Source of the DNA: a virus
Lineage: Duplodnaviria > Heunggongvirae > Uroviricota > Caudoviricetes
DNA: 12,483 nucleotides
Reading direction: 5' to 3' (one strand)
IMG/VR virus record: IMGVR_UViG_2636415477_000012
Shown here: piece after piece, positions 2,488 through 12,483 of the stretch
Numbering within the stretch: the stretch's first letter is position 1
Layout of the letters: the number at the start of each line of letters is the position of its first letter
Program-made: the position numbers and the translations under genes
The notes under the pieces: model-generated
Seen by the model: only the letters and a program-made list of their open reading frames with translations
Told to the model about the DNA's origin: nothing
Database searches by the model: none

Positions 2488-3747
2488 ATGAAACGTGTCA
2501 TTTCTTACATCCGGTTTTCATCTGAGAAGCAATCCCGAGGTGATTCATTACGCCGACAATCTAAGATGGTTACAGATTGGCTTAAGGCTCATCCTGAGTA
2601 CTACCTTGACCAAGACTTATCTTTTCGTGATTTGGGGGTGAGTGGATTCACTGGTAAGCACTTGAAAGGTGGCTTAGGTGACTTCTTAACCGCTATCGAG
2701 AAAGGGCTTGTTAAAGCTGGTGATACGCTCTTGATAGAATCTCTTGACCGTTTGTCACGCCAGAACGTAGACCGAGCAAGTGAGCTATTACGAAACATTC
2801 TTCGCTCTGGTGTAGATGTAGTCACCTTGTCCGATGGTGAACATTACACACGAGAATCTCTTAAAGACCCGTTAGCTCTGATTAAAAGCATTCTGATAAT
2901 GCAGCGGTCGCATGAGGAGAGTTTGAGGAAGTCTGAGCGTATACAAGGTGCATGGAACCGTAAAAAAGAACTCATCTCTGAAGGTATCAAGATTTCTAAA
3001 CGTTGTCCTGCATGGCTTAAGCTTAATGATGACCGTAAAAGCTTCTCTGTGATACCTGAGAAAGTAGAGACTGTGAAGAGGTGCTTTCAGCTACGGTTAG
3101 AGGGCAAATCTATCTGGGAGATTGTCAGGACTCTTAATGATGAAGGTCACCAGACACTTAACCAGTACAAAGCAGGTAAGTTTGGTCAAACCTCAGTGCA
3201 AGACCTTCTGAAGAATCGCTCTGTAATTGGTTACTTCACACCTAAAGGCTGTGAAGAGATTTCAGGTTATTACCCTGCAATTATAGATGAAACAATATTC
3301 TACAAAGTCCAGCAACTATCATATTCTCGTTATGGAAGAAAGCCTGCTTCAGATAAACCATTGAGCGTGAATCTTTTCAAAGGGGTTATCCGTTGTTCTG
3401 AATGTGGTCATGCTCTGATTATCACAGGCTTTAGCGATACAAGAAACGGGATTTATCGTTGTCCTCTTCGTAATGAAAACCGTTGTAGTGCTAAAGGACT
3501 TTCACGTAAGCAAACCGATGGTACATTGCTTACTCTGCTATCTCGTCTTGACCGATTTGATAGCGATACGACGAATATCATAGATATGTTGAGGCTACAC
3601 CGTGAACACATCTCAAGCAATATTGAAAAGCTGGTACAGCTATCACTTGAAATTGAAGATTTGTCAGCTGCGTATTTTCATGAAAGGAGATCACTCAATA
3701 ACTTCCATCGAGATCGGGTAATAACATTTGAACAGATCGCTGAATAA
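2488..3747 (+). CDS. Large serine recombinase (serine integrase), N-terminal ~397 aa native; the last ~22 codons and the stop lie inside the IS21-family left end
   Basis: Resolvase-type catalytic N-terminus VISYIRFSSEKQSRGDSLRRQ (Ser nucleophile), recombinase domain, Cys-rich zinc-ribbon CSECGH...YRCPLRNENRC, then the start of a coiled coil. The ORF continues from 3681 to 3747 through the GATC/AATAAC repeats that form the IS end. Confidence 0.85.
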   Translation: MKRVISYIRFSSEKQSRGDSLRRQSKMVTDWLKAHPEYYLDQDLSFRDLGVSGFTGKHLKGGLGDFLTAIEKGLVKAGDTLLIESLDRLSRQNVDRASELLRNILRSGVDVVTLSDGEHYTRESLKDPLALIKSILIMQRSHEESLRKSERIQGAWNRKKELISEGIKISKRCPAWLKLNDDRKSFSVIPEKVETVKRCFQLRLEGKSIWEIVRTLNDEGHQTLNQYKAGKFGQTSVQDLLKNRSVIGYFTPKGCEEISGYYPAIIDETIFYKVQQLSYSRYGRKPASDKPLSVNLFKGVIRCSECGHALIITGFSDTRNGIYRCPLRNENRCSAKGLSRKQTDGTLLTLLSRLDRFDSDTTNIIDMLRLHREHISSNIEKLVQLSLEIEDLSAAYFHERRSLNNFHRDRVITFEQIAE

Positions 3748-3780
3748 CATCGATGGAGATCACTTTTGACTCATTTTGTT
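3689..3780. repeat. Four phased 23-bp subterminal repeats at the IS left end, each starting with GATC
   Basis: GATC at 3689, 3712, 3735 and 3758 (exact 23-bp spacing). AATAAC at 3697, 3720 and 3743, i.e. in the first three units (same spacing). Unit 1 versus unit 3 match at 18/23 positions. Confidence 0.6.
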
Positions 3781-3861
3781 ATTCAGTGATCTCCATCAAT
3801 GTTATTGGAACTTCACAGGTGTGTTGATCTGTATCTTTTGCCATTCCGGTAAAGGATACCT

Positions 3862-5403
3862 ATGCCAACAGTTCCAATTTCTATGAGAAAACTTAAAGAA
3901 ATTCTTAGGCTTAAATACGGTGTTGGACTCAGCCATCGACAAATTGGTCGTAGTCTTGCAATCTCCCCTTCCGTTGTATCCAGATATGCTAATCGGGCGG
4001 CTCAACTTGGCATAAAGCAGTGGCCCTTACCTACAGGATGGGATGATACAAAACTAAAACATGCGTTCCTTCAGACCCAGGTTAAGATGAAGAAGCACTC
4101 TCTGCCTGACTGGGCTACAGTACACCGGGAACTGCGTAATAAATGCGTGACGCTGCAGCTACTCTGGGAAGAATACTGTGAGCGTAATCCAGGCGGTTTT
4201 TACAGCTATAACCATTACTGCCGGATGTACCGTGAATGGCTCAAAACCACTTCACCATCAATGCGTCAGGTACATAAAGCTGGCGAAAAACTTTTCGTTG
4301 ATTACTGTGGACCTACCGTTGGCGTTACCGACCCTGAGACCGGAGAAATAAGAACTGCTCAGGTCATCGTAGCTGTTCTCGGGGCATCAAGTTACACATG
4401 GGCAGAGGCCACCTGGTCTCAGCAGCTTGAAGACTGGGTGATGAGTCATGTTCGCTGCTTCCAGTGGTTGGGTGGCGTTCCTGAACTTGTTGTTCCGGAC
4501 AATCTGAAAAGCGCCACATCCAGGGCATGTAAGTATGATCCTGACGTTAACCCTACCTACCAGCAGATGCTTGAGCATTATAATGTCGCAGTTTTGCCTG
4601 CGCGGCCACGTAAACCGAAAGATAAAGCCAAAGCTGAAGTTGGCGTTCAGGTTGTTGAACGCTGGATCATGGCCCGAATCAGGCATGAGATCTTCTACAG
4701 CCTTGCATCGCTTAATCAGCGCATTCGGGAGTTGCTGGAAAGACTGAATAACAAAATAATGCAGAAGTTGGGTTATTCACGTGCAGAACTCTTCATCCAG
4801 CTTGATAAACCCGCACTGAAGCCTCTTCCTGAAGCCAGTTACAGTTACACCCTGGTGAAGAAAGTCAGAGTTCATGCCGATTACCACGTGGAAATCGACA
4901 AACATTACTACTCGGTTCCATGTTCGCTGTTAGGCCAGCAACTGGAAGCATGGATCTCCGGAGAACTGGTAAGACTCTTCAATCAGGGGCAGGAGGTTGC
5001 TGTGCACCCGCGCAAGCGTACTTATGGCTACAGTACCCGCAACGAGCACATGCCTGAAGCTCATCGACAGCATGCCACCTGGACGCCAGAGCGTCTTCTG
5101 GAATGGGCGGGGCACATAGGCAGTGAAACTCATAGTTATGTGCTTCATATACTGAACTCTCGTCCACATCCGGAACAAAGCTATCGCTTCTGCCTTGGAC
5201 TCCTGAACCTTCATAAAAAATACAGTAAAGCCAGACTTAATGCAGCATGTGCAAGAGCTCTGAAAACAAAGGTATGGCGTCTGTCAGGTATTAAATCGAT
5301 CCTGGAAAAAGGTCTGGATAAACAACCTGTTCAGGATCCAAAACCAGATCTGTTATCCACGATGGAACACGAAAACGTACGCGGCAGTGAGTATTACCAC
5401 TGA
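3862..5403 (+). CDS. istA: IS21-family transposase IstA
   Basis: 513-aa ORF with N-terminal helix-turn-helix region (LSHRQIGRSLAISPSVVSRY) and DDE-type core segments (LFVDYCG ... VVPDNLKSA ... KAKAE); immediately followed by istB. Confidence 0.9.
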   Translation: MPTVPISMRKLKEILRLKYGVGLSHRQIGRSLAISPSVVSRYANRAAQLGIKQWPLPTGWDDTKLKHAFLQTQVKMKKHSLPDWATVHRELRNKCVTLQLLWEEYCERNPGGFYSYNHYCRMYREWLKTTSPSMRQVHKAGEKLFVDYCGPTVGVTDPETGEIRTAQVIVAVLGASSYTWAEATWSQQLEDWVMSHVRCFQWLGGVPELVVPDNLKSATSRACKYDPDVNPTYQQMLEHYNVAVLPARPRKPKDKAKAEVGVQVVERWIMARIRHEIFYSLASLNQRIRELLERLNNKIMQKLGYSRAELFIQLDKPALKPLPEASYSYTLVKKVRVHADYHVEIDKHYYSVPCSLLGQQLEAWISGELVRLFNQGQEVAVHPRKRTYGYSTRNEHMPEAHRQHATWTPERLLEWAGHIGSETHSYVLHILNSRPHPEQSYRFCLGLLNLHKKYSKARLNAACARALKTKVWRLSGIKSILEKGLDKQPVQDPKPDLLSTMEHENVRGSEYYH

Positions 5404-5414
5404 TACGGGATCCA

Positions 5415-6164
5415 ATGATGAATCATCTTTACGAACAACTGACCGCACTTAAACTCACCGGCTTCCGTGATGCGCTTAAAAAGCAACTTGCTCAGCCGGG
5501 CACATACCAGGAGCTGGGCTTCGAAGAACGCCTGTCATTACTGACAGCAGAAGAACTAACCTGCCGTGAAAACAGGAAGGCAGAGCGTCTGATCAAACAT
5601 GCACGGTTCAGACTTAATGCTGAGTTATCAAAGCTGGATTATCGTAACAATAGAGGGCTGGACAGGGCCCTCATCCGTTCACTCAGTCAGGGAAACTGGT
5701 TAACCCTGAAACAAAATATTTTACTGACCGGGGCCACCGGCAGCGGTAAAACGTTCCTGGCATGTGCACTTGGTCATAATGCCTGCCGACAGGGATACAA
5801 GGTCTACTATTATCGCCTTAAAGCGCTGATGGAACAGTGCTATCAGGGGCATGCTGATGGAAGATACAGCAAACTTTTGACCAGGCTGAATAATAGCGAT
5901 CTGCTGCTTCTGGATGACTGGGGGCTGGAACCTCTCTCATCAGAACAGCGTAGCGACCTGCTGGAAATAGTGGATCTGATGTACCAACGAGGCTCAATCA
6001 TCGTAGTGAGCCAGTTGCCGGTGGAAAACTGGTACAAAATGATCGGAGACTCCACACATGCGGATGCCATCCTAGATCGACTGGTTCATGGCAGTATCAA
6101 GATCGAACTTAAAGGAGAATCAATGCGGAAAATACAATCTCCGTTGACCGAAGGAGATCAGTGA
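5415..6164 (+). CDS. istB: IS21-family ATP-binding helper protein IstB
   Basis: 249-aa ORF with Walker A GATGSGKT and Walker B LLLLDDWG; starts 12 bp after the istA stop. Confidence 0.9.
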   Translation: MMNHLYEQLTALKLTGFRDALKKQLAQPGTYQELGFEERLSLLTAEELTCRENRKAERLIKHARFRLNAELSKLDYRNNRGLDRALIRSLSQGNWLTLKQNILLTGATGSGKTFLACALGHNACRQGYKVYYYRLKALMEQCYQGHADGRYSKLLTRLNNSDLLLLDDWGLEPLSSEQRSDLLEIVDLMYQRGSIIVVSQLPVENWYKMIGDSTHADAILDRLVHGSIKIELKGESMRKIQSPLTEGDQ

Positions 6165-6200
6165 AGGTAATTTAAAAACGGTTCTGTGAAAGTGACACGA

Positions 6201-6237
6201 ACCGATCTCCATCGATGTTACTCACCGATCTCCTTCA
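6201..6237. repeat. IS right terminal inverted repeat with two phased GATC units
   Basis: GATC at 6204 and 6227 (23-bp spacing); the reverse complement matches the left-end units, including the perfect 17-mer gatctccatcgatgtta at 6204-6220. Confidence 0.6.
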
Positions 6238-6243
6238 CGGTAA

Positions 6244-6597
6244 TACGCATCAGCTATTACCAGCAAGCTAAAACAACTAAAGAATGAGCTATCACAGGTT
6301 GATGCGGATATCGAGAAGGAGACACAACGCCTTAAATCTATTGATGTGGGTTGTTTGTCTGATTGTGACTTGACTACAAAGGCGGGAAGGATTGAAGCAC
6401 AACTGATAATCAAAAGTGCTGTTAAAGAGGTCGTTTTAAATACTGCTAAACGTCGCTGTAAAGTGACTTTTCACAATGGTAGAGCAATCACCTTACCAAT
6501 AACAGAAAACCCCTCAGAGGACGTTACAGAGGCTATACAGTCGCTTTCTGAGGTCACTGAGAGGGGTTTAATAGATGTTGATGAGGTTATCATATAG
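6244..6597 (+). pseudogene. Probable C-terminal remnant of the interrupted large serine recombinase (coiled-coil region); has no ATG start
   Basis: Open frame from just after the TAA at 6241-6243 to the TAG at 6595-6597 translates to YASAITSKLKQLKNELSQVDADIEKETQRLKSID...; same strand and same reading-frame phase (position mod 3) as the recombinase; heptad-like charged sequence. The ORF track lists only a GTG-initiated part (6346-6597). Confidence 0.45.
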
Positions 6598-6611
6598 TTG
6601 AGATTCTATCG

Positions 6612-7385
6612 TCAGTATCGCTTGTTAGGATTAACAGAATACTTCTTCAAAGTACTACCTGTACCAGCATTATTAAGCACCTTTGAAGCTTGCTCATTAG
6701 CGGCATCTGAGAAGGTGCTTTTTCCGTTCTTAACTCTGACATTTTTACCACAATTGATACGGGCTTGAAGTTGCTCATTAGTAAGTTCACTCGTAGAGCG
6801 ATTATATAGCTCCTGACACATCAACATACCGTTACCTAAGCTTGTCGTAGTGTTCCCTGTATTCTTTTTACTGGTAGCACCACCATCACTTGTGGTAGAA
6901 GTCCTTCCGGTCGCAGCCGAGATATCAGTCTGACCCACAATAGCTTTAAAGTTAATTTCCTGAAAAGTTAATTGGATTCTAAGACCATTGGCAATACCAA
7001 CATCTTTAGAGGCTTTAAAGTTTGTAATAATTGAGTCGTCAATCTTAATACCATCTTTACAGACAACTGAGATAATTTGCTTCTGGTCACGCCAGTTTTC
7101 AAGAGTGTCTATGAAGTTTTCCACCAGCTTATTATCTCTTGAGATAAGGATACTACCGGATTCACCAACCACAACCACACCACTGATTGAAATAGTTCTT
7201 GGTGAACGCATTACATTATCTGTTACAGTCTGCCCTGATTGCATATTTTGAGTGGTAACCATCATAGGGCTGTCAAATTCCATGTTTTCAGTTGCTGATA
7301 GTGACAAGAAATTATCTGGTTGGCCTTGTAGATGGAAGTAAACGCCATCTTTACCACTGTAACGAAGCTGATTAGTGTAAATCAT
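6612..7385 (-). CDS. Hypothetical protein (257 aa) directly downstream of the tape-measure-domain gene; possibly tail-associated
   Basis: ORF-track entry 6612-7406 begins at a TTG. I prefer the in-frame ATG at 7385 (MIYTNQLRY...), preceded by AAGGAG 6 nt upstream. Ser/Thr/Gly-rich C-terminal half. No recognisable catalytic motif. Confidence 0.6.
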
Positions 7386-7460
7386 TAAATTCTCCTTTGA
7401 TTTCAAAGGCTTAGTGTATTTTAATCATTTTTAACCAAGCCTTTGATATATAAGTGTTTT

Positions 7461-7535
7461 CTCTGCTAAGCGTGTTGTACGTAAATTCTATTTTTCAGTG
7501 TGGGTATTAGCTTTACAGATTTCACGTAGCACACG
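7461..7535. repeat. Copy 1 of a ~75-bp conserved intergenic direct repeat, upstream of the 257-aa gene
   Basis: About 90% identical to 9691-9766; the conserved core cgtaaattctatttttcagtgtgg(g/a)tattagctttacagatttca(c/t)gtagcacac is read directly from the sequence. Sits 14 bp after the stop of the 709-aa gene and about 75 bp before the ATG at 7385. Confidence 0.85.
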
Positions 7536-7548
7536 GATATATAAGAAA

Positions 7549-9678
7549 TCATTCTTCCTCTGGATAGCTTGAACTTAAGAGCATATCCTGCGTGAACTGG
7601 TCATTAGCCGATTGACTGAAATTAAAGAAAGCTGGTTCATCCGGTCTAACAGTTGCTTCACCAGTGATATTAACTGACAAGGGCTTCTTAGCTTCTACTG
7701 TTAAAGCATCAACCTTGCGTGATAGTTCACTAATAGTCATTGCAAGTTGAGCATTGCTATTAACCATGTCACCTGTGATAGCTGGTGTAGTTGATTGTGT
7801 GTTATTAACAAGGTTACTCATTGGCTCTTGGAAGTTAGCAATTTTATTAGCTGCACCATTAAACCAGTCAGCGATAGAACTACCAATCTTAGCCCATCCA
7901 TCATTAATTTGGTTTGGTGTAGAATCGCCTTTGTATTCAGGGTTGAAGTTTGTCTCTGTTCCAATACCTGATTGATGTAAGTTCGGATTCTTAGCTGCTT
8001 CAGGGTTTAAATTATCAAGAGCAAAGTTTACCAACTCAGCATAAAGGACAACTCTACCGACTTTACTTAGCGCACCACCTGAAGAACCAGCCTTGCCAGC
8101 TTTAGCTTTATTAACAGCGTCACCGAATGAAGTAACAGCGTTTGCAAGGTTTAACAAGCCTCCTGCTACATTTGCAGCCTTTTGAGCAGTAACAGCTACG
8201 GCAAGCATCTTCAAACCATCAATTAACCCATCAGATAAACCATCAACAATTTTTTTCTGAGTGTCATTTAGTGAACGGTAAGCTAATGTCACCTCATCGA
8301 AGAACGCTCTTACCCTGTAACTGATATCAGTCAGGCTATCCACACCACTTGACATAGAAGTCATGAGACTACCAAGAGATTCACCAAGACTCTTACCGCT
8401 TCCACCTAAACTGTTTAAAAGCGTTGTTAGGCTTCTTGTAAAATCTTGCAGACCATTTTCAGAACCTCTAAAAATATCCGTTAATGAGTTATTCCAGGTA
8501 TTCTTTAAGTTCCCTAACATTGTCTGCGTAGAGTCCTGAATAGCTTTCCAGCCACCTCTGGAATTAATCTGTGAACCAAGTTCTTTAGCAAATTTAGGAA
8601 GTGCATCAGAGGCTTTAACATCACCATTTTTCATCTTATCGAAAAGCTGTTTTTCAGTCAGACCTAAAGCCTTTGCAAATGCCTGAGTAGCACCCGGTAA
8701 AGCTTCAGATAGTTGCCCCTTCAACTCCTCAGCCATCACCTGACCCTTAGAAGCCATCTGTGACACTGCGGTTAATGCTCTTTGAATCTGCTCATCTGAA
8801 CGACCCATTAAACGAGCATAACCTGTAAGGTTTTTAAATAACTCTTCTGACCCTTCAAGACCCATCGTAGTCGTTGCACTTGCACCAAATGAAGCAAATT
8901 GCGCTTGTGTTTCGGTTGTGTCCATACCAGTAATTTTAGTTAAATCTTGAATGAACTTTTTAACCTGTGTACTTTGGTCACCGAATACGAAATCAATACT
9001 TCTTTCCGATGATGCACGCTGTAAACCAACTTCCATTACTCGCTGATAAGCGGATAGTACAGCCTGAAAGCTGATAAATGCACCTGCTGTTTTCACTGCT
9101 ACTGAACTTAAATTATCAAGAGAACTAGCTGCTTTGTCACTATTAATGCTGGTGGATGTATGACCTCTGGCTTTAGCAATTGCTTCTCGTACACTTGAAT
9201 TTAGTTTAGCAAGGGCTTCATTAAATTTTGAATTATCCATTGACCCAGCTTTAGCAGATAGCCCGTAAAACTGACTCTTAATGTATTTCTCGACAATTGG
9301 GTTAAGACCTTTTAGCTTAGACATATTCGCTGAATAAGCTGCTGTGATTGCTCTGTTGCCGCTAATTCGTGGCTGTCTTGGCTGTCTAAGTGGCTTTAAA
9401 GTATCCTCAATTTCCGTTTTAATCTTAAACGCTCTAGTGTTTTTAAGACGCTGCTCAATCTTGTCAAAGGTCTTATTAAACTTCCTTTCAAGTTGCCCTA
9501 AAGAACTTGTCAGATTGCTGTCAAGTTGCTTGGTATCGACCTTAAACGCTCTATTCAAATTACGTTCAATTCTTTGTGCTGACTGCAAAGCTGCCTTTTC
9601 AACTCTTTGCAAGCCCTTAATAACGTTCTCGCTGAAGCCTAGCTCAACGATAAAACTATCAACTGTGAATTTGCTCAT
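7549..9678 (-). CDS. Tape-measure-domain protein (709 aa), phage tail tape-measure-like
   Basis: ATG at 9678 with AAGAGGTGA Shine-Dalgarno and an in-frame stop immediately upstream. Segment ELKGQLSEALPGATQAFAKALGLTEKQLFDKMKNGDVKASDALPKFAKELG matches the pattern of phage tape-measure domains as I recall it. Long helical, Gly/Ser/Ala-rich regions (GSGKSLGESLGSL, AGKAGSSGGALSKVG). Confidence 0.7.
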   Translation of the reverse strand: MSKFTVDSFIVELGFSENVIKGLQRVEKAALQSAQRIERNLNRAFKVDTKQLDSNLTSSLGQLERKFNKTFDKIEQRLKNTRAFKIKTEIEDTLKPLRQPRQPRISGNRAITAAYSANMSKLKGLNPIVEKYIKSQFYGLSAKAGSMDNSKFNEALAKLNSSVREAIAKARGHTSTSINSDKAASSLDNLSSVAVKTAGAFISFQAVLSAYQRVMEVGLQRASSERSIDFVFGDQSTQVKKFIQDLTKITGMDTTETQAQFASFGASATTTMGLEGSEELFKNLTGYARLMGRSDEQIQRALTAVSQMASKGQVMAEELKGQLSEALPGATQAFAKALGLTEKQLFDKMKNGDVKASDALPKFAKELGSQINSRGGWKAIQDSTQTMLGNLKNTWNNSLTDIFRGSENGLQDFTRSLTTLLNSLGGSGKSLGESLGSLMTSMSSGVDSLTDISYRVRAFFDEVTLAYRSLNDTQKKIVDGLSDGLIDGLKMLAVAVTAQKAANVAGGLLNLANAVTSFGDAVNKAKAGKAGSSGGALSKVGRVVLYAELVNFALDNLNPEAAKNPNLHQSGIGTETNFNPEYKGDSTPNQINDGWAKIGSSIADWFNGAANKIANFQEPMSNLVNNTQSTTPAITGDMVNSNAQLAMTISELSRKVDALTVEAKKPLSVNITGEATVRPDEPAFFNFSQSANDQFTQDMLLSSSYPEEE

Positions 9679-9690
9679 TCATATTTTTCA

Positions 9691-9766
9691 CCTCTTTAAG
9701 CGTGAGCTACGTAAATTCTATTTTTCAGTGTGGATATTAGCTTTACAGATTTCATGTAGCACACAT
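9691..9766. repeat. Copy 2 of the ~75-bp conserved intergenic direct repeat, immediately upstream of the tape-measure-domain gene
   Basis: Same orientation as copy 1. Its promoter-distal end supplies the Shine-Dalgarno (cttaaagagg on the - strand) 12 bp before the ATG at 9678. Confidence 0.85.
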
Positions 9767-9768
9767 AC

Positions 9769-9809
9769 AAAAAAAGGAGAAACTACCGATGTCACTCGAT
9801 AATCTCTCC
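9769..9809 (-). terminator. Candidate intrinsic terminator after the 71-aa gene
   Basis: On the - strand: stem GGAGAGA / TTTCTCC (one mismatch; + strand arms 9776-9782 and 9803-9809), ~20-nt loop, followed by seven T (A-run 9769-9775 on +). The loop is large, so it is weak. Confidence 0.35.
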
Positions 9810-9859
9810 CCGTACTATAGATTCGATAGAACCTATCTCATACACCCAACCAATCTTTT

Positions 9860-10075
9860 TTAATGCCTGACAAGATAATGTAGTTCCGTTTCACCTATGA
9901 TTTGAGCATCAGAAGGGATACGGTCAATACACCATTTTGGAATCTTGCGTGTTTTTGGTTTGCGTGAGGTGATAATTTGATGTTTGGTTTTAATTCTTAA
10001 GGCTGGCTTAGTTTGTAACTTTAAGTTTTCACAAACAGACTTAATAGTTTCATAGCGTTCTGTTAAATCAATCAT
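9860..10075 (-). CDS. Hypothetical small basic protein (71 aa)
   Basis: ORF-track entry; ATG at 10075 with GAGGTGA Shine-Dalgarno 4 nt upstream; Lys/Arg-rich; 22 bp after the stop of the upstream gene. Confidence 0.5.
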   Translation of the reverse strand: MIDLTERYETIKSVCENLKLQTKPALRIKTKHQIITSRKPKTRKIPKWCIDRIPSDAQIIGETELHYLVRH

Positions 10076-10097
10076 TCATCACCTCACATATGCATAA

Positions 10098-10802
10098 TTA
10101 AACAGCCTTGCTAAATTCTCGTGGAACACTCAGAAAATCATTGAAGCTGATAATCTGTGCCAACTCTTGACGGTACTCCTTAGCCAGCGCTTGATGGTCA
10201 CTAATCAGCTTAGCCAGTCTTGATTTCAGCAAATTAATCTCATTTTCTCTTGCTTTCATCAGTTTCTCTTTGGCAATTTCTTCAAGCTCAGCTTGTGATT
10301 TATCAGCAACAATTAGAGACAGTCGATGTGGTGCTCTGACAGCTCTTTCGGTGCGAACAACTCTTTGACCTTCTGGTAAATCTGCAATCACTTTACCAAT
10401 CTCTACAGGGTCATACCCCCAACCGTCACGGTCTAGTCGAGAGAAATAAGCATAAGGATTGGTTTGAAGCTCCATCAAAATAGCCATTTCGTCAATTTCG
10501 TCTTCAAGCTTGGACTGAATTTTCTCGTAAACACTTCTCATTGCTTCTTGAGAGTCTTTAATAGCTTGGAAATATCGGCGTTGTAGCTTCAACTTCAAAT
10601 CAAGCTCACATTCCTCATTCATCGAAAAATCAATTTCAACTCTTGGAATCTCGAGTGGTTCTGGTGGAATATATGGACCTTTATTTACTTCGTGTGATTC
10701 CCGCCAAGCTCTATCAAAAGATTCACGCAAAGTTAATTCGTGAATATCAAGTGCACTTGGTTTGTTTTCGATAATCATTTCATGTTCATCACGGATAGAC
10801 AT
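10098..10802 (-). CDS. Hypothetical acidic coiled-coil protein (234 aa)
   Basis: ORF-track entry; ATG at 10802 with GAGGAAAA Shine-Dalgarno; Glu/Asp-rich helical sequence; no recognisable motif. Confidence 0.65.
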   Translation of the reverse strand: MSIRDEHEMIIENKPSALDIHELTLRESFDRAWRESHEVNKGPYIPPEPLEIPRVEIDFSMNEECELDLKLKLQRRYFQAIKDSQEAMRSVYEKIQSKLEDEIDEMAILMELQTNPYAYFSRLDRDGWGYDPVEIGKVIADLPEGQRVVRTERAVRAPHRLSLIVADKSQAELEEIAKEKLMKARENEINLLKSRLAKLISDHQALAKEYRQELAQIISFNDFLSVPREFSKAV

Positions 10803-10919
10803 TATTATTTTTCCTCTTCTAAGATAATTTATGTTTCAGTTTTTAAAAAGCACACCTGACAGCCTACGAACTTAGAAGAGACTTAAAAGGCGTTTGCCAA
10901 GTATGCTTTTTAAAAGCTG

Positions 10920-10964
10920 AAAAAAGCCCTAAACATAGGTTCATCCTTATCTGTAAAGGGCTTT
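10920..10964 (-). terminator. Hairpin followed by a T-run (terminator-like or structured RNA)
   Basis: Stem AAAGCCCT (10923-10930) / AGGGCTTT (10957-10964), 26-nt loop; on the - strand the 3' arm is followed by TTT then CAGC (run of six T counting the stem). Confidence 0.3.
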
Positions 10965-11024
10965 GAAGGTTTGCTTATAACGTTAACGAAGTTTCAGGAA
11001 AAACTTTCTTTAAAAGCTCTGTTT

Positions 11025-11062
11025 AAAAACTCTTAAAGAAAGCCCTAACTCATGATTAGGGC
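11025..11062 (-). terminator. Candidate intrinsic terminator downstream of the HNH/HTH/107-aa operon
   Basis: Stem GCCCTAA (11042-11048) / TTAGGGC (11056-11062), 7-nt loop; on the - strand it is followed by TTTCTTTAAGAGTTTTT. Confidence 0.4.
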
Positions 11063-11286
11063 AAAGCTGTAAGGGTTCAATAATGAATGATTAAGCACTT
11101 TTTGATATATAGCCTATCTAGTGGGCTAAATAGGCCATGTAGCGAAAAGCATTGCACCTTTCAGAATAACTATCCCTAGATGTAGATGGAATTGTTGAAA
11201 GAAATAAGAGAGAATTGCTCTCCCATACTTAAAATTATGACATATTTAAGGTTATTTGTCAACAGCTTTTTAACAGATTGGTAACA

Positions 11287-11364
11287 TTAATTCTTATTTA
11301 CCGTGTTACCTACCCAGCAACCAACAAATAAACCCAAAGCTGTCCAAGCAATTATTAAGCCCAT
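11287..11364 (-). CDS. Possible 25-aa hydrophobic peptide (MGLIIAWTALGLFVGCWVGNTVNKN)
   Basis: I translated it by hand. Its ATG overlaps the TAA stop of the upstream 107-aa gene (TAATG). Single predicted transmembrane-like stretch. No other support. Confidence 0.25.
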   Translation of the reverse strand: MGLIIAWTALGLFVGCWVGNTVNKN

Positions 11365-11687
11365 TAATGCACCACCTTCGAATCCGTAACCAAAATATTG
11401 TCAGCGTACAAAATTGCTATAGCTGCCTTGAGATATTTTTCAGGGCTAACGCTGTATTTGTTCGTTTGCTCGATAACCAATCTTTTCATGTTGCTGTCTT
11501 TAATTGGTAGCATCATTCGAGGCTCGTTAAACTCCACCGAGTGAATAAAGTCAGAGATGCTTTCCGCATTATCAGCCATTAACTCTAACAACTTATCAAA
11601 GTCAATGCTAACACCTACATCAGTGAAAGCCTGAATCATCATAGCGGTGTCGTTATCAACGAAAATTTGCATTGGGTGATTATTCAT
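11364..11687 (-). CDS. Hypothetical acidic protein (107 aa)
   Basis: ORF-track entry; ATG at 11687 with AGAGGAA Shine-Dalgarno about 8 nt upstream. Confidence 0.6.
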   Translation of the reverse strand: MNNHPMQIFVDNDTAMMIQAFTDVGVSIDFDKLLELMADNAESISDFIHSVEFNEPRMMLPIKDSNMKRLVIEQTNKYSVSPEKYLKAAIAILYADNILVTDSKVVH

Positions 11688-11765
11688 TTTTAAATTCCTC
11701 TAAAACACATCTTAAATCTGCCAAAATAGCCATTCTGAGGCCAGTAACCATGCGGGTTACAGAGG

Positions 11766-11812
11766 GAGTGAGACACCTTAGTAATAGGGTAGCTCATCTT
11801 TGAGTCTCACTC
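11766..11812. promoter_or_regulatory. 9-bp inverted repeat in the 137-bp intergenic region (possible operator or RNA structure)
   Basis: GAGTGAGAC (11766-11774) and its exact reverse complement GTCTCACTC (11804-11812), 29-bp spacer; no T-run follows, so not scored as a terminator. Confidence 0.3.
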
Positions 11813-11824
11813 ATTCTCACAGGC

Positions 11825-12211
11825 TTACACAGACGCTTTAATCTTGTAGTATTGACTACGTGATAAGCCGTATTTCTCAGAAATATAACTTTGTGATTGT
11901 CCTTTGGTGATTGCATCAATGATTAAATCTTTATTGTATCTGTTGCCATTGGTTTTGTGCTTGTCACCACTTTTAATAGAGTTGAAATTCTCAATTAATT
12001 TAATGGCGTCTTTAAGGTCGTCTTCGTAAGCATAATCAAAACCCCTGATAAACTCGAAATCACCATTATCTTTTTGTGCTTCAGCCCAGATATCAAATCT
12101 TGAGGCTAATTGCTGGTGGGTAAACTTGGGTTTATTGGTTTGTGTTACGTCCCTCCAGATTCTACCGTCAAATCTTACCAAATGGTCACGATGTTTATAA
12201 AAGTCATACAT
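11825..12211 (-). CDS. Hypothetical protein (128 aa from the ATG at 12211) with a C-terminal helix-turn-helix
   Basis: The ORF-track entry starts at a TTG (12244). I prefer the ATG at 12209-12211, which overlaps the upstream TAA (TAATG) and has GGAGG 5 nt upstream. C-terminal DLIIDAITKGQSQSYISEKYGLSRSQYYKIK resembles resolvase/transposase-type helix-turn-helix. Confidence 0.6.
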   Translation of the reverse strand: MYDFYKHRDHLVRFDGRIWRDVTQTNKPKFTHQQLASRFDIWAEAQKDNGDFEFIRGFDYAYEDDLKDAIKLIENFNSIKSGDKHKTNGNRYNKDLIIDAITKGQSQSYISEKYGLSRSQYYKIKASV

Positions 12212-12483
12212 TAAACCTCCTGTAGTAAGTTGTTTGGGTGGCAATTTCTTTTATTACCATCCTTGAAGATAATCTTTTTAGTTGCCTGAACTTCATGATG
12301 CAAAAACCAGATGACATACTTCAGATAATAATCACGAGTGCCATAACGAATCATTGGATTACCGTAAGCATCATCTCTTGTCTTAACCTCTCCGCCATCA
12401 ATCCATTCAAGCATTCCTGTTTCGTAATTAATCATGAAGTAAGTTGCAAAGAACCGTTTAATATCATCTCGCCATTGCTTCAT
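12211..12483 (-). CDS. HNH-endonuclease-like protein (HNH_3-type pattern); possibly 5'-partial at the window edge
   Basis: YGTRDYYLKYVIWFLHHE...IIFKDGNKRNCHPNNLL resembles the H...DGNK.NN..NL pattern of phage HNH endonucleases, but the usual His before DGN is replaced (FKD), so it may be degenerate. ORF starts at an ATG at the last base of the window. Confidence 0.45.
   Translation of the reverse strand: MKQWRDDIKRFFATYFMINYETGMLEWIDGGEVKTRDDAYGNPMIRYGTRDYYLKYVIWFLHHEVQATKKIIFKDGNKRNCHPNNLLQEV

Follow-up and report, generated by a model that had tools for sequence, protein, structure and literature searches.

This report concerns a non-coding gap at positions 10803-11286 of the window, the 12,483-nt stretch of DNA held as the IMG/VR virus record IMGVR_UViG_2636415477_000012 (Caudoviricetes). 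The gap lies between two groups of minus-strand genes. On its upstream side are genes for proteins of 107, 139 and 90 amino acids (aa), and on its downstream side is the gene for a 234-aa protein. The preliminary description of this DNA had seen no open reading frame (ORF) with a credible start in the gap, and our analysis agrees. There is no ORF of at least 40 aa, the ORFs of 21-32 aa found on both strands are not kept in homologues, and the GC content is 0.33-0.35 compared to 0.37-0.41 in the flanks. Judged from its sequence, the gap is a conserved non-coding regulatory cassette, built from parts of familiar types that are newly combined and belong to a new sequence family, and its most likely mode of action is as a minus-strand RNA. 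Its features are as follows.

11263-11290, minus strand: block upstream of the -35 hexamer, AATGTTACCAATCTGTTAAAAAGCTG, with the direct repeat CTGTT-N6-CTGTT; ~25 nt are better conserved than the adjoining coding DNA
11262-11234, minus strand: predicted sigma-70 extended -10 promoter, with TTGACA (11262-11257), a 17-nt spacer, TG (11242-11241) and CATAAT (11239-11234)
11226-11204, minus strand: hairpin SL1, GGGAGAG/CUCUCU, at the predicted 5' end of the RNA
11162-11143, minus strand: invariant 20-mer, GAAAGGUGCAAUGCUUUUCG
11138-11109, minus strand: hairpin SL2, 12-13 bp, AUGGCCUAUUUAG / CUAGAUAGGCUAU
11062-11035 (hairpin 11062-11042), minus strand: predicted terminator T1, GCCCUAAU-CAUGA-GUUAGGGC followed by UUUCUUU, found by the terminator scan
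11041-11004, minus strand: post-T1 hairpin, CUUUCUUUAAGAG / CUUUUAAAGAAAG
10964-10917 (hairpin 10964-10923), minus strand: predicted terminator T2, AAAGCCCU...AGGGCUUU followed by U6, a 70% identical duplicate of the T1 module
10919-10837, minus strand: long hairpin of 24-27 bp with a 33-nt apical loop (5' arm 10919-10895, 3' arm 10861-10837)
10880-10871, minus strand: putative anti-Shine-Dalgarno (anti-SD) sequence, CUCUUCUAAG, part of the long hairpin's apical loop, identified from loop-SD duplex energies
10823-10800, minus strand: SD region of the 234-aa gene, CUUAGAAGAGGA, with its ATG (10802-10800), the predicted target of the loop pairing

The gap sequence is kept in ~478 E. coli genomes at 71-98% identity, and among the matches listed, 57 of 60 E. 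coli records have no PGAP feature under the gap match. An unconserved spacer or a protein-coding gene in homologues, either of which the preliminary description had named as an outcome that would speak against its interpretation, was not seen. For structural comparison, an alignment of 28 homologues, found by homology and not via the 20-mer, was extended with 112 loci that carry the invariant 20-mer on viral and metagenome contigs (one of them a chance hit), giving 117 unique leaders. No match to the gap was found by BLAST in 50,697 phage records. The Rfam scan proposed in the preliminary description drew a blank: in the window and in one complete island, no Rfam 15 covariance model scored at the gathering threshold, the C4/CI antisense RNA of P1/P7/P4 and known leaders included. 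A permissive scan gave only sub-threshold hits to unrelated families (eukaryotic microRNAs and small nucleolar RNAs, two Streptococcus small RNAs and the S15 leader), and a scan for transfer RNA (tRNA) and transfer-messenger RNA genes gave nothing meaningful. The gap is thus a source of structured-RNA motifs that covary strongly, are absent from Rfam and occur in roughly 9% of complete E. coli genomes. Could it nevertheless be an ordinary AT-rich intergenic spacer, with operon-end terminators and chance repeats? Such terminators are common, and the spacer between T1 and T2 and several modules are dispensable. Conservation across ~478 genomes, a near-perfectly conserved promoter, three covarying helices, and a loop and SD that change in step make this very unlikely.

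Transcription is predicted to begin at ~11229-11226, from a sigma-70 promoter that matches the consensus at 11 of 12 positions and also has the extended -10 TG. The promoter is conserved in all 106 scorable unique variants, each with TTGACA or TTGATA, a 17-nt spacer, TG, and CATAAT or GATGAT. It surpasses the coding DNA on its flanks in conservation, and it is probably constitutive. The block immediately upstream is a candidate UP element or operator. It includes a copy of the 'GCTTTTTAA' motif (11262-11275), the fourth, which was overlooked in the preliminary description.

The RNA expected from this promoter is strongly structured. The whole 432-nt leader folds with a z-score of -7.6, and its promoter-proximal 199 nt with a z-score of -3.6. 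All 27 sequence variants of SL1 fold into a hairpin of 5-10 bp, with a mean energy of -8.2 kcal/mol compared to -1.9 kcal/mol for shuffled sequences, and its arms co-change. In SL2, six of 12 pairs have changed on both sides, and 92% of cells are paired compared to 40-59% with slid partners. Between these two hairpins, 65 nt past the predicted start, is the 20-mer, identical in all 28 homologues found by homology. It can form a 6-bp hairpin with the loop UGCAAUG, and it holds an SD-like AAGGUG and an AUG. Since its six pairs never vary, covariation is uninformative for its structure. The resemblance of the 20-mer to an SD plus start codon raises leader-peptide attenuation, in which translation of a mini-ORF at the invariant AAGGUG-N-AUG would govern T1 formation. 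However, the ORF at this AUG spans 5-58 codons, so that there is no conserved peptide, and the position of its stop bears no fixed relation to SL2 and T1. We therefore regard attenuation of this kind as highly improbable. Some leaders carry optional inserted hairpin modules between SL1 and the 20-mer. A separate observation is that a ~28-nt hairpin module, GAGGATAGTCTTCTATCCGAAGTCTAT, turns up as an optional insert at two intergenic sites in the island, one just past the leader promoter (L016, L017 and others) and one upstream of the tape-measure gene (L077, L025 and others). It looks like a tiny mobile or recombining cassette.

The preliminary description had also noted two related hairpins (10923-10964 and 11042-11062), each with a T-run on the minus strand. 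Both exist, and they are the duplicated hairpins of T1 and T2. Each combines a hairpin with a U tract, the defining architecture of an intrinsic (Rho-independent) terminator, and both are predicted to act as such. T1 would end an RNA of ~190 nt and T2 one of ~305 nt. In 10000-12483, four terminator-like sites were found compared to 1.5 +/- 1.5 in shuffled sequences. The loop of T2 (10964-10923) exceeds the limit of the terminator scan, and its extended hairpin was found in a separate fold. The T1 stem is kept across variants, as GCCCUAA, GCCCUGA or GCCCUC with matching 3' arms, and T1 is missing from some loci. Every one of the 117 leaders has a GCCCU..AGGGC hairpin, with two such hairpins in 84 and one in 33, and some of the single-terminator leaders resemble fusions of T1 and T2. 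The spacer between the two is deleted in several loci. In the post-T1 hairpin, a single U-to-C change turns a G.U into a G-C pair in L008 and L012.

The repeated motifs that the preliminary description reported in the gap are present as well, at 10840-10851 (tttttaaaaagc), 10905-10917 (gctttttaaaagc) and 11008-11030 (ctttaaaagctctgtttaaaaac). The first two form the arms of an inverted repeat (28 nt, 86% complementary). The 'GCTTTTTAAAA' motifs are accordingly the two arms of the long hairpin, one copy in the post-T1 hairpin within the duplicated T1 module, and one beside the -35 hexamer. The 10-mer ATCTGTAAAG was found too, one base off at 10949-10958. Its proposed connection to a promoter-like repeat fell away: the shared letters are on the opposite strand of the 68-nt repeat described below, most homologues read CTTCACAGAT, and we treat the match as chance.

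Downstream of the terminators is the long hairpin, which is among the best supported RNA structures of the gap. In it, 15 of 24 pairs have changed on both sides, and 94% are paired compared to 34-48% with slid partners. RNAalifold independently recovered its stem. The covariation check that the preliminary description had recommended is thus positive for both this hairpin and SL2. The loop sequence CUCUUCUAAG is complementary to the SD-side sequence CUUAGAAGAG (10823-10814), and the predicted loop-SD duplex is worth -13 to -18 kcal/mol in six sequence classes, compared to -6 to -8 kcal/mol for shuffled loops. Loop and SD change in step: leaders with CUCUUCUAAG have CUUAGAAGAG, and other leader classes have UUCACCUC with GAGGUGAA. 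A loop-SD duplex is present in every class, cognate partners pair more strongly than cross-class partners, and in the leader classes V1, V3 and V4 the helix is in the same register. The linker from the 3' arm to the SD varies from about 6 to 30 nt. Compensatory changes of this kind suggest that the loop-SD pairing is a pseudoknot-type translational operator, predicted to sequester the SD of the 234-aa gene.

The same hairpin might instead serve mainly as an RNase III site or as a 'fold-back inhibition' device. In the first case, cleavage in the 25-bp stem would strip away the anti-SD loop and switch translation on, as in the lambda N leader. In the second, transcripts that start inside the hairpin would have a free SD, as in the protection of IS10 and IS50 from outside transcription. 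A duplex of 24-27 bp is of sufficient length for RNase III, the stem is near-perfect and A/U-rich, and its cleavage would abolish the loop-SD pairing. On the other hand, no conserved promoter-like hexamers were found inside the hairpin or the linker, the linker length is variable, and RNase III is constitutive, so that cleavage alone would be no switch. We consider this role unlikely as the main one.

Several observations bear on whether the gap acts as RNA or as DNA. The preliminary description had raised a replication or packaging origin with AT-rich iterons, and the region is AT-rich with repeated A/T motifs; moreover, satellites need an origin and a packaging site somewhere. However, the motif copies are inverted complementary arms or the product of tandem duplication, rather than regularly spaced direct repeats. 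Across the variants of the long hairpin we counted 398 G.U pairs and 63 A.C juxtapositions. The G.U pairs can form on the minus strand alone, a point against an origin acting as DNA. Folds of the sense strand averaged -35.4 kcal/mol compared to -25.8 kcal/mol for the antisense strand, and the sense strand folded better in 84 of 91 variants. The genome of the putative helper phage has no similarity to the gap, and a 2.6-kb ORF-poor stretch elsewhere in the island is, by analogy with PLE of Vibrio cholerae, a better origin candidate. We therefore set aside the iteron origin or pac site as a candidate and regard a DNA-level element, be it a replication origin or a pac/cos site, as hardly credible. 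That the stems stay paired through two-sided changes is a signature of RNA and not of a protein-binding iteron. The strand asymmetry, taken with three covarying stems and a promoter, terminators and SD that are all oriented on the minus strand, likewise points to RNA. Of the other two possibilities raised in the preliminary description, a 'tandem terminator plus regulatory region' fits well, given that promoter, covarying RNA, intrinsic terminators (one or two) and a hairpin predicted to sequester the SD share the minus strand, and a 'small RNA locus' fits the conserved promoter and the structured, terminated minus-strand RNA.

The genes and further features surrounding the gap are listed below.

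11364-11287, minus strand: 25-aa hydrophobic ORF, MGLIIAWTALGLFVGCWVGNTVNKN, the last gene of the upstream operon; it abuts the gap, and its stop is 25 nt ahead of the -35 hexamer
10098-10802, minus strand: 234-aa gene, the putatively gated gene, with a C-terminal coiled coil in its product; it is followed by the 71-aa, tape-measure and Dit-like genes
9770-9809 of the window, minus strand: predicted terminator before the tape-measure gene, hairpin plus T-run, with an equivalent site in 81 unique homologues
7549-9678, minus strand: tape-measure gene, 32% identical to that of Felixounavirus, with conserved N- and C-termini
6612-7406, minus strand: Dit-like baseplate gene, 71% identical to the homologue that neighbours the tape-measure gene in Felixounavirus garuso
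2488-3747: large serine recombinase gene, interrupted by an IS21-family element (istA/istB, 3668-6249)

Two putative locks are visible directly in the sequence between these operons, termination at T1 and T2 and occlusion of the SD by the loop. We think it probable, with real room for doubt, that the gap is a minus-strand RNA-level gate, combining termination with a translational lock, between two co-directional operons of an island integrated in yecE. In the proposed mechanism, the near-consensus sigma-70 promoter would start a structured RNA comprising SL1, the invariant hairpin and the covarying SL2. Most of these transcripts, together with read-through from the upstream operon, would stop at T1 or at its duplicate T2 and yield a non-coding RNA of ~190 nt or ~305 nt. 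Transcripts that pass the terminators would fold the 24-27 bp hairpin, whose apical loop would block the SD of the 234-aa gene as a pseudoknot. Expression of the 234-aa, 71-aa, tape-measure and Dit-like genes would then need an unlocking event. The key would most likely be processive read-through of terminators, set at or just after the promoter on infection by a helper or target phage, and the invariant hairpin is a candidate loading or recognition site for a read-through factor.

The rest of the operon also bears on how the gate would open. All 81 unique regions upstream of the tape-measure gene have a hairpin (mean -22.5 kcal/mol) and a T5 run. The T-run begins as near as 23 nt ahead of the tape-measure ATG, which leaves no room for a promoter. 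Since a strong predicted terminator stands directly before this gene in every island examined, the gene seems to need read-through. The co-directional gene string thus holds at least two or three conserved terminators. Several conserved terminators after one strong promoter and a structured leader are the layout of an antitermination operon, and this favours read-through as the key.

A number of points weigh against the gate. The transcription start, the 3' ends and the terminator strength are predictions. The same goes for how active the promoter is, how efficiently transcripts terminate, whether translation is repressed and, most of all, what the unlocking key is. An antiterminator protein was not identified. 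Apart from the Dit-like and tape-measure proteins, the proteins of the island gave no convincing family match in Pfam, PHROG, NCBIfam or PADLOC, and no conserved boxA-like element was found in the leaders. The loop-SD helix cannot be scored in one common register of the alignment, and some of its energy comes from generic anti-SD complementarity, with cross-class duplexes still at -6 to -18 kcal/mol. The 25-bp stem could instead be cut constitutively by RNase III, which would free the SD. In one leader class the only terminator hairpin is followed by a poor U tract (AGGGCUAUUCAG), whereas most others have a U run. Finally, a strictly invariant 20-mer would suit a base-pairing seed as well as a protein site. 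If the gate is nevertheless as proposed, the gap would be a compact natural cassette of terminator and translational lock. It would also give a concrete handle on how the island is kept silent and switched on during phage attack, the points of access being the promoter, the terminators, the invariant hairpin and the anti-SD loop.

The invariance of the 20-mer leads to a further reading, in which the unit from promoter to T1 is primarily a free-standing gene for a trans-acting small RNA (sRNA), with the 20-mer as its seed and terminators that merely end the sRNA. SviR of the V. cholerae satellite PLE is a ~210-nt RNA with an intrinsic terminator, encoded between gene clusters, and PLE itself is a serine-recombinase satellite with a ~3 kb non-coding region containing its origin (PMC7567579; bioRxiv 10.1101/2022.04.08.487710). 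The gap has a comparable layout, with a strong conserved promoter, a structured RNA of ~190 nt, an intrinsic terminator, one strictly invariant segment and a position between gene clusters, and the island likewise has a serine recombinase and 2.6 kb of ORF-poor DNA. In addition, the 20-mer has a 14-nt exact complement in the messenger RNA (mRNA) of garuso_17 of Felixounavirus, 38-51 nt upstream of the garuso_16 start, and pairing at this site is kept via G.U in four other Ounavirinae. The chance of a 14-nt match for a pre-chosen 20-mer is estimated at roughly 0.005-0.02.

Against these similarities, a hybridisation-energy scan of the phage genome did no better than shuffled seeds (-23.3 observed compared to a mean minimum of -25.5), and a crude method found no convincing target in the translation-initiation regions of the island. 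The 20-mer is predicted to be largely base-paired, a SviR-like flanking inverted repeat is present in two leader classes only, and the identity of the helper is itself putative. We also tried helper mimicry as an explanation. Two covariance models, one built on the 20-mer with SL2 and the other on the long hairpin, had no counterpart in the phage, their sole hit being an unrelated A/U hairpin among its tRNA genes. We consider an sRNA gene a possible but doubtful description of the unit as a whole. It is compatible with the hairpin/SD lock as a separate element, and the cassette may double as an sRNA gene.

The garuso_17 complement is a lead rather than a finding. That the ~190-nt RNA is a trans-acting satellite sRNA whose invariant hairpin (GAAAGGUGCAAUGCUUUUCG) pairs with this conserved early Felix O1-like mRNA at the garuso_17 site strikes us as quite improbable. 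Were it so, the locus would represent an undescribed E. coli satellite or defence island that uses RNA to gain a hold over a virulent myovirus. It would parallel PLE and SviR in E. coli, and the island tape measure would be decoy-like. An sRNA acting in trans would extend the sRNA conflict between satellite and phage from Vibrio to E. coli.

The island that carries the proposed gate is ~11.5 kb long, lies in yecE and begins with the serine recombinase in complete E. coli genomes (complete copy, L001:10775-22250; part in the window, 2488-12483). Among 5,426 complete E. coli genomes, similar DNA was found in 488, and E. coli A15, JML285 and UMNK88 are examples of strains with the island. Many leader-bearing metagenome contigs measure 11-12 kb, close to the length of a full island. 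The window itself starts with the end of a phiP27-like lambdoid prophage (1-2038, with its integrase at 694-2007 and an excisionase) that directly adjoins the island, an arrangement suggesting that the two occupy yecE in tandem. The IS21-family element in the recombinase gene is 100% identical to copies in Escherichia phages PhiR12. The island is putatively satellite-like, or a defence or tail-assembly-interference island, tied to Felix O1-like phages. Literature searches on the yecE island, on the motif sequence and on satellites of Felix O1-like phages returned nothing specific, and no description of the island was found.

The leader is common to two allelic forms of the gene behind it, both of ~235 aa and only about 25% identical to each other (10098-10802 and L002:15773-16480). 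The 234-aa protein gave only weak sub-threshold Pfam hits and no similarity to phage tape-measure chaperones, and sequence searches of PHROGs, NCBIfam, PADLOC and PDB were uninformative. An allelic form of the 234-aa protein gave only a weak PADLOC hit. RefSeq calls one of the two allelic forms a 'transposase', and Pfam, NCBIfam and PHROG scans gave no match for that allele. On the other side of the gap, the ATG of the 25-aa ORF overlaps the stop of the 107-aa gene as TAATG. This ORF is absent from the RefSeq annotation. It is kept open in three divergent allelic forms (28 loci), and therefore it probably encodes a real small membrane protein, translationally coupled to the 107-aa gene.

Further observations were made elsewhere in the island. 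A 68-nt direct repeat, 93% identical, lies at 7467-7534 and 9697-9764 on the minus strand, just upstream of the ribosome-binding sites (RBSs) of the Dit-like and tape-measure genes. It is optional, being present in 14 of 80 tape-measure upstream regions, and has GTGTGCT...ACTGAAAnATAnAnTT in common with the 3' arm of the long hairpin. As candidate helper promoters, these repeats were rejected, having no match in a complete Felixounavirus genome and being missing from most islands. Upstream of the Dit-like gene (7395-7454, minus strand) is a hairpin, CAAAGGCUUGGU...ACUAAGCCUUUG, whose 3' arm CCUUUG can instead pair with the SD CAAAGGAG; it may be another translational switch in the operon. Outside the window, the 2.6-kb ORF-poor stretch (L001:18607-21269) is unannotated and without an Rfam hit. 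Near-consensus sigma-70 promoters in divergent orientation (18659-18723) flank it, one of them directed into ORF-less DNA, and the stretch recalls the ~3 kb non-coding region of PLE with its origin.

Among known systems, PLE resembles the yecE island in having a large serine recombinase, a multi-kb non-coding region and an apparent tie to a virulent myovirus. SviR and the gap RNA are both about 200 nt long, with a conserved promoter and an intrinsic terminator, and both lie between clusters of a small island. The likeness is one of layout. The SviR promoter is induced by the helper, whereas the gap promoter looks constitutive, and SviR has covarying flanking inverted repeats, whereas complementarity between the upstream block and the 5' arm is confined here to the V1 and V2 leader classes. 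No significant targets of the kind that define SviR were found for the gap RNA.

The proposed gate also resembles processive antitermination operons, such as lambda P_R'/6S/t_R' with Q, lambda N/nut and HK022 put. At lambda P_R', a strong constitutive promoter likewise gives a terminated transcript of ~190 nt directly upstream of the structural (late) genes, which come on only once polymerase is terminator-resistant, and further terminators lie within the operon. In contrast to lambda, no Q-like protein, Q-binding element or sigma-dependent pause signal was identified here. Moreover, the structure of the gap leader is itself conserved, with covariation, a constraint that 6S RNA can do without, and there is an additional putative translational lock. 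HK022 put and the lambda N/nut boxB similarly place conserved nascent-RNA stem-loops just past the promoter, ahead of terminators to be read through. The put and nut elements share no sequence or Rfam similarity with the gap leader, in which neither a conserved boxA nor, in the island, an N-like arginine-rich protein was recognised. One hairpin of the gap leader is invariant in both stem and loop, as expected of a site bound by a protein or by polymerase.

In P4 immunity (the P_LE leader, CI RNA and the C4 family), a constitutive promoter and a stable structured leader RNA are likewise combined with premature termination that silences an operon. The stable RNA of P4 is complementary to repeated sites of its own leader, and RNase P processes it. 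The gap differs in giving no Rfam C4 hit, and duplex scans for leader self-complementarity of the seqA/seqB/seqC type, by a crude method, found nothing above shuffled controls. The predicted translational lock has its nearest relatives in the RNase III site of the lambda N leader and in the fold-back structures of IS10 and IS50, where an upstream hairpin likewise hides an RBS in transcripts that come from further upstream. In those systems the RBS is held by a stem arm, whereas in the yecE island the SD would pair with the apical loop of a 25-bp hairpin, as a pseudoknot.

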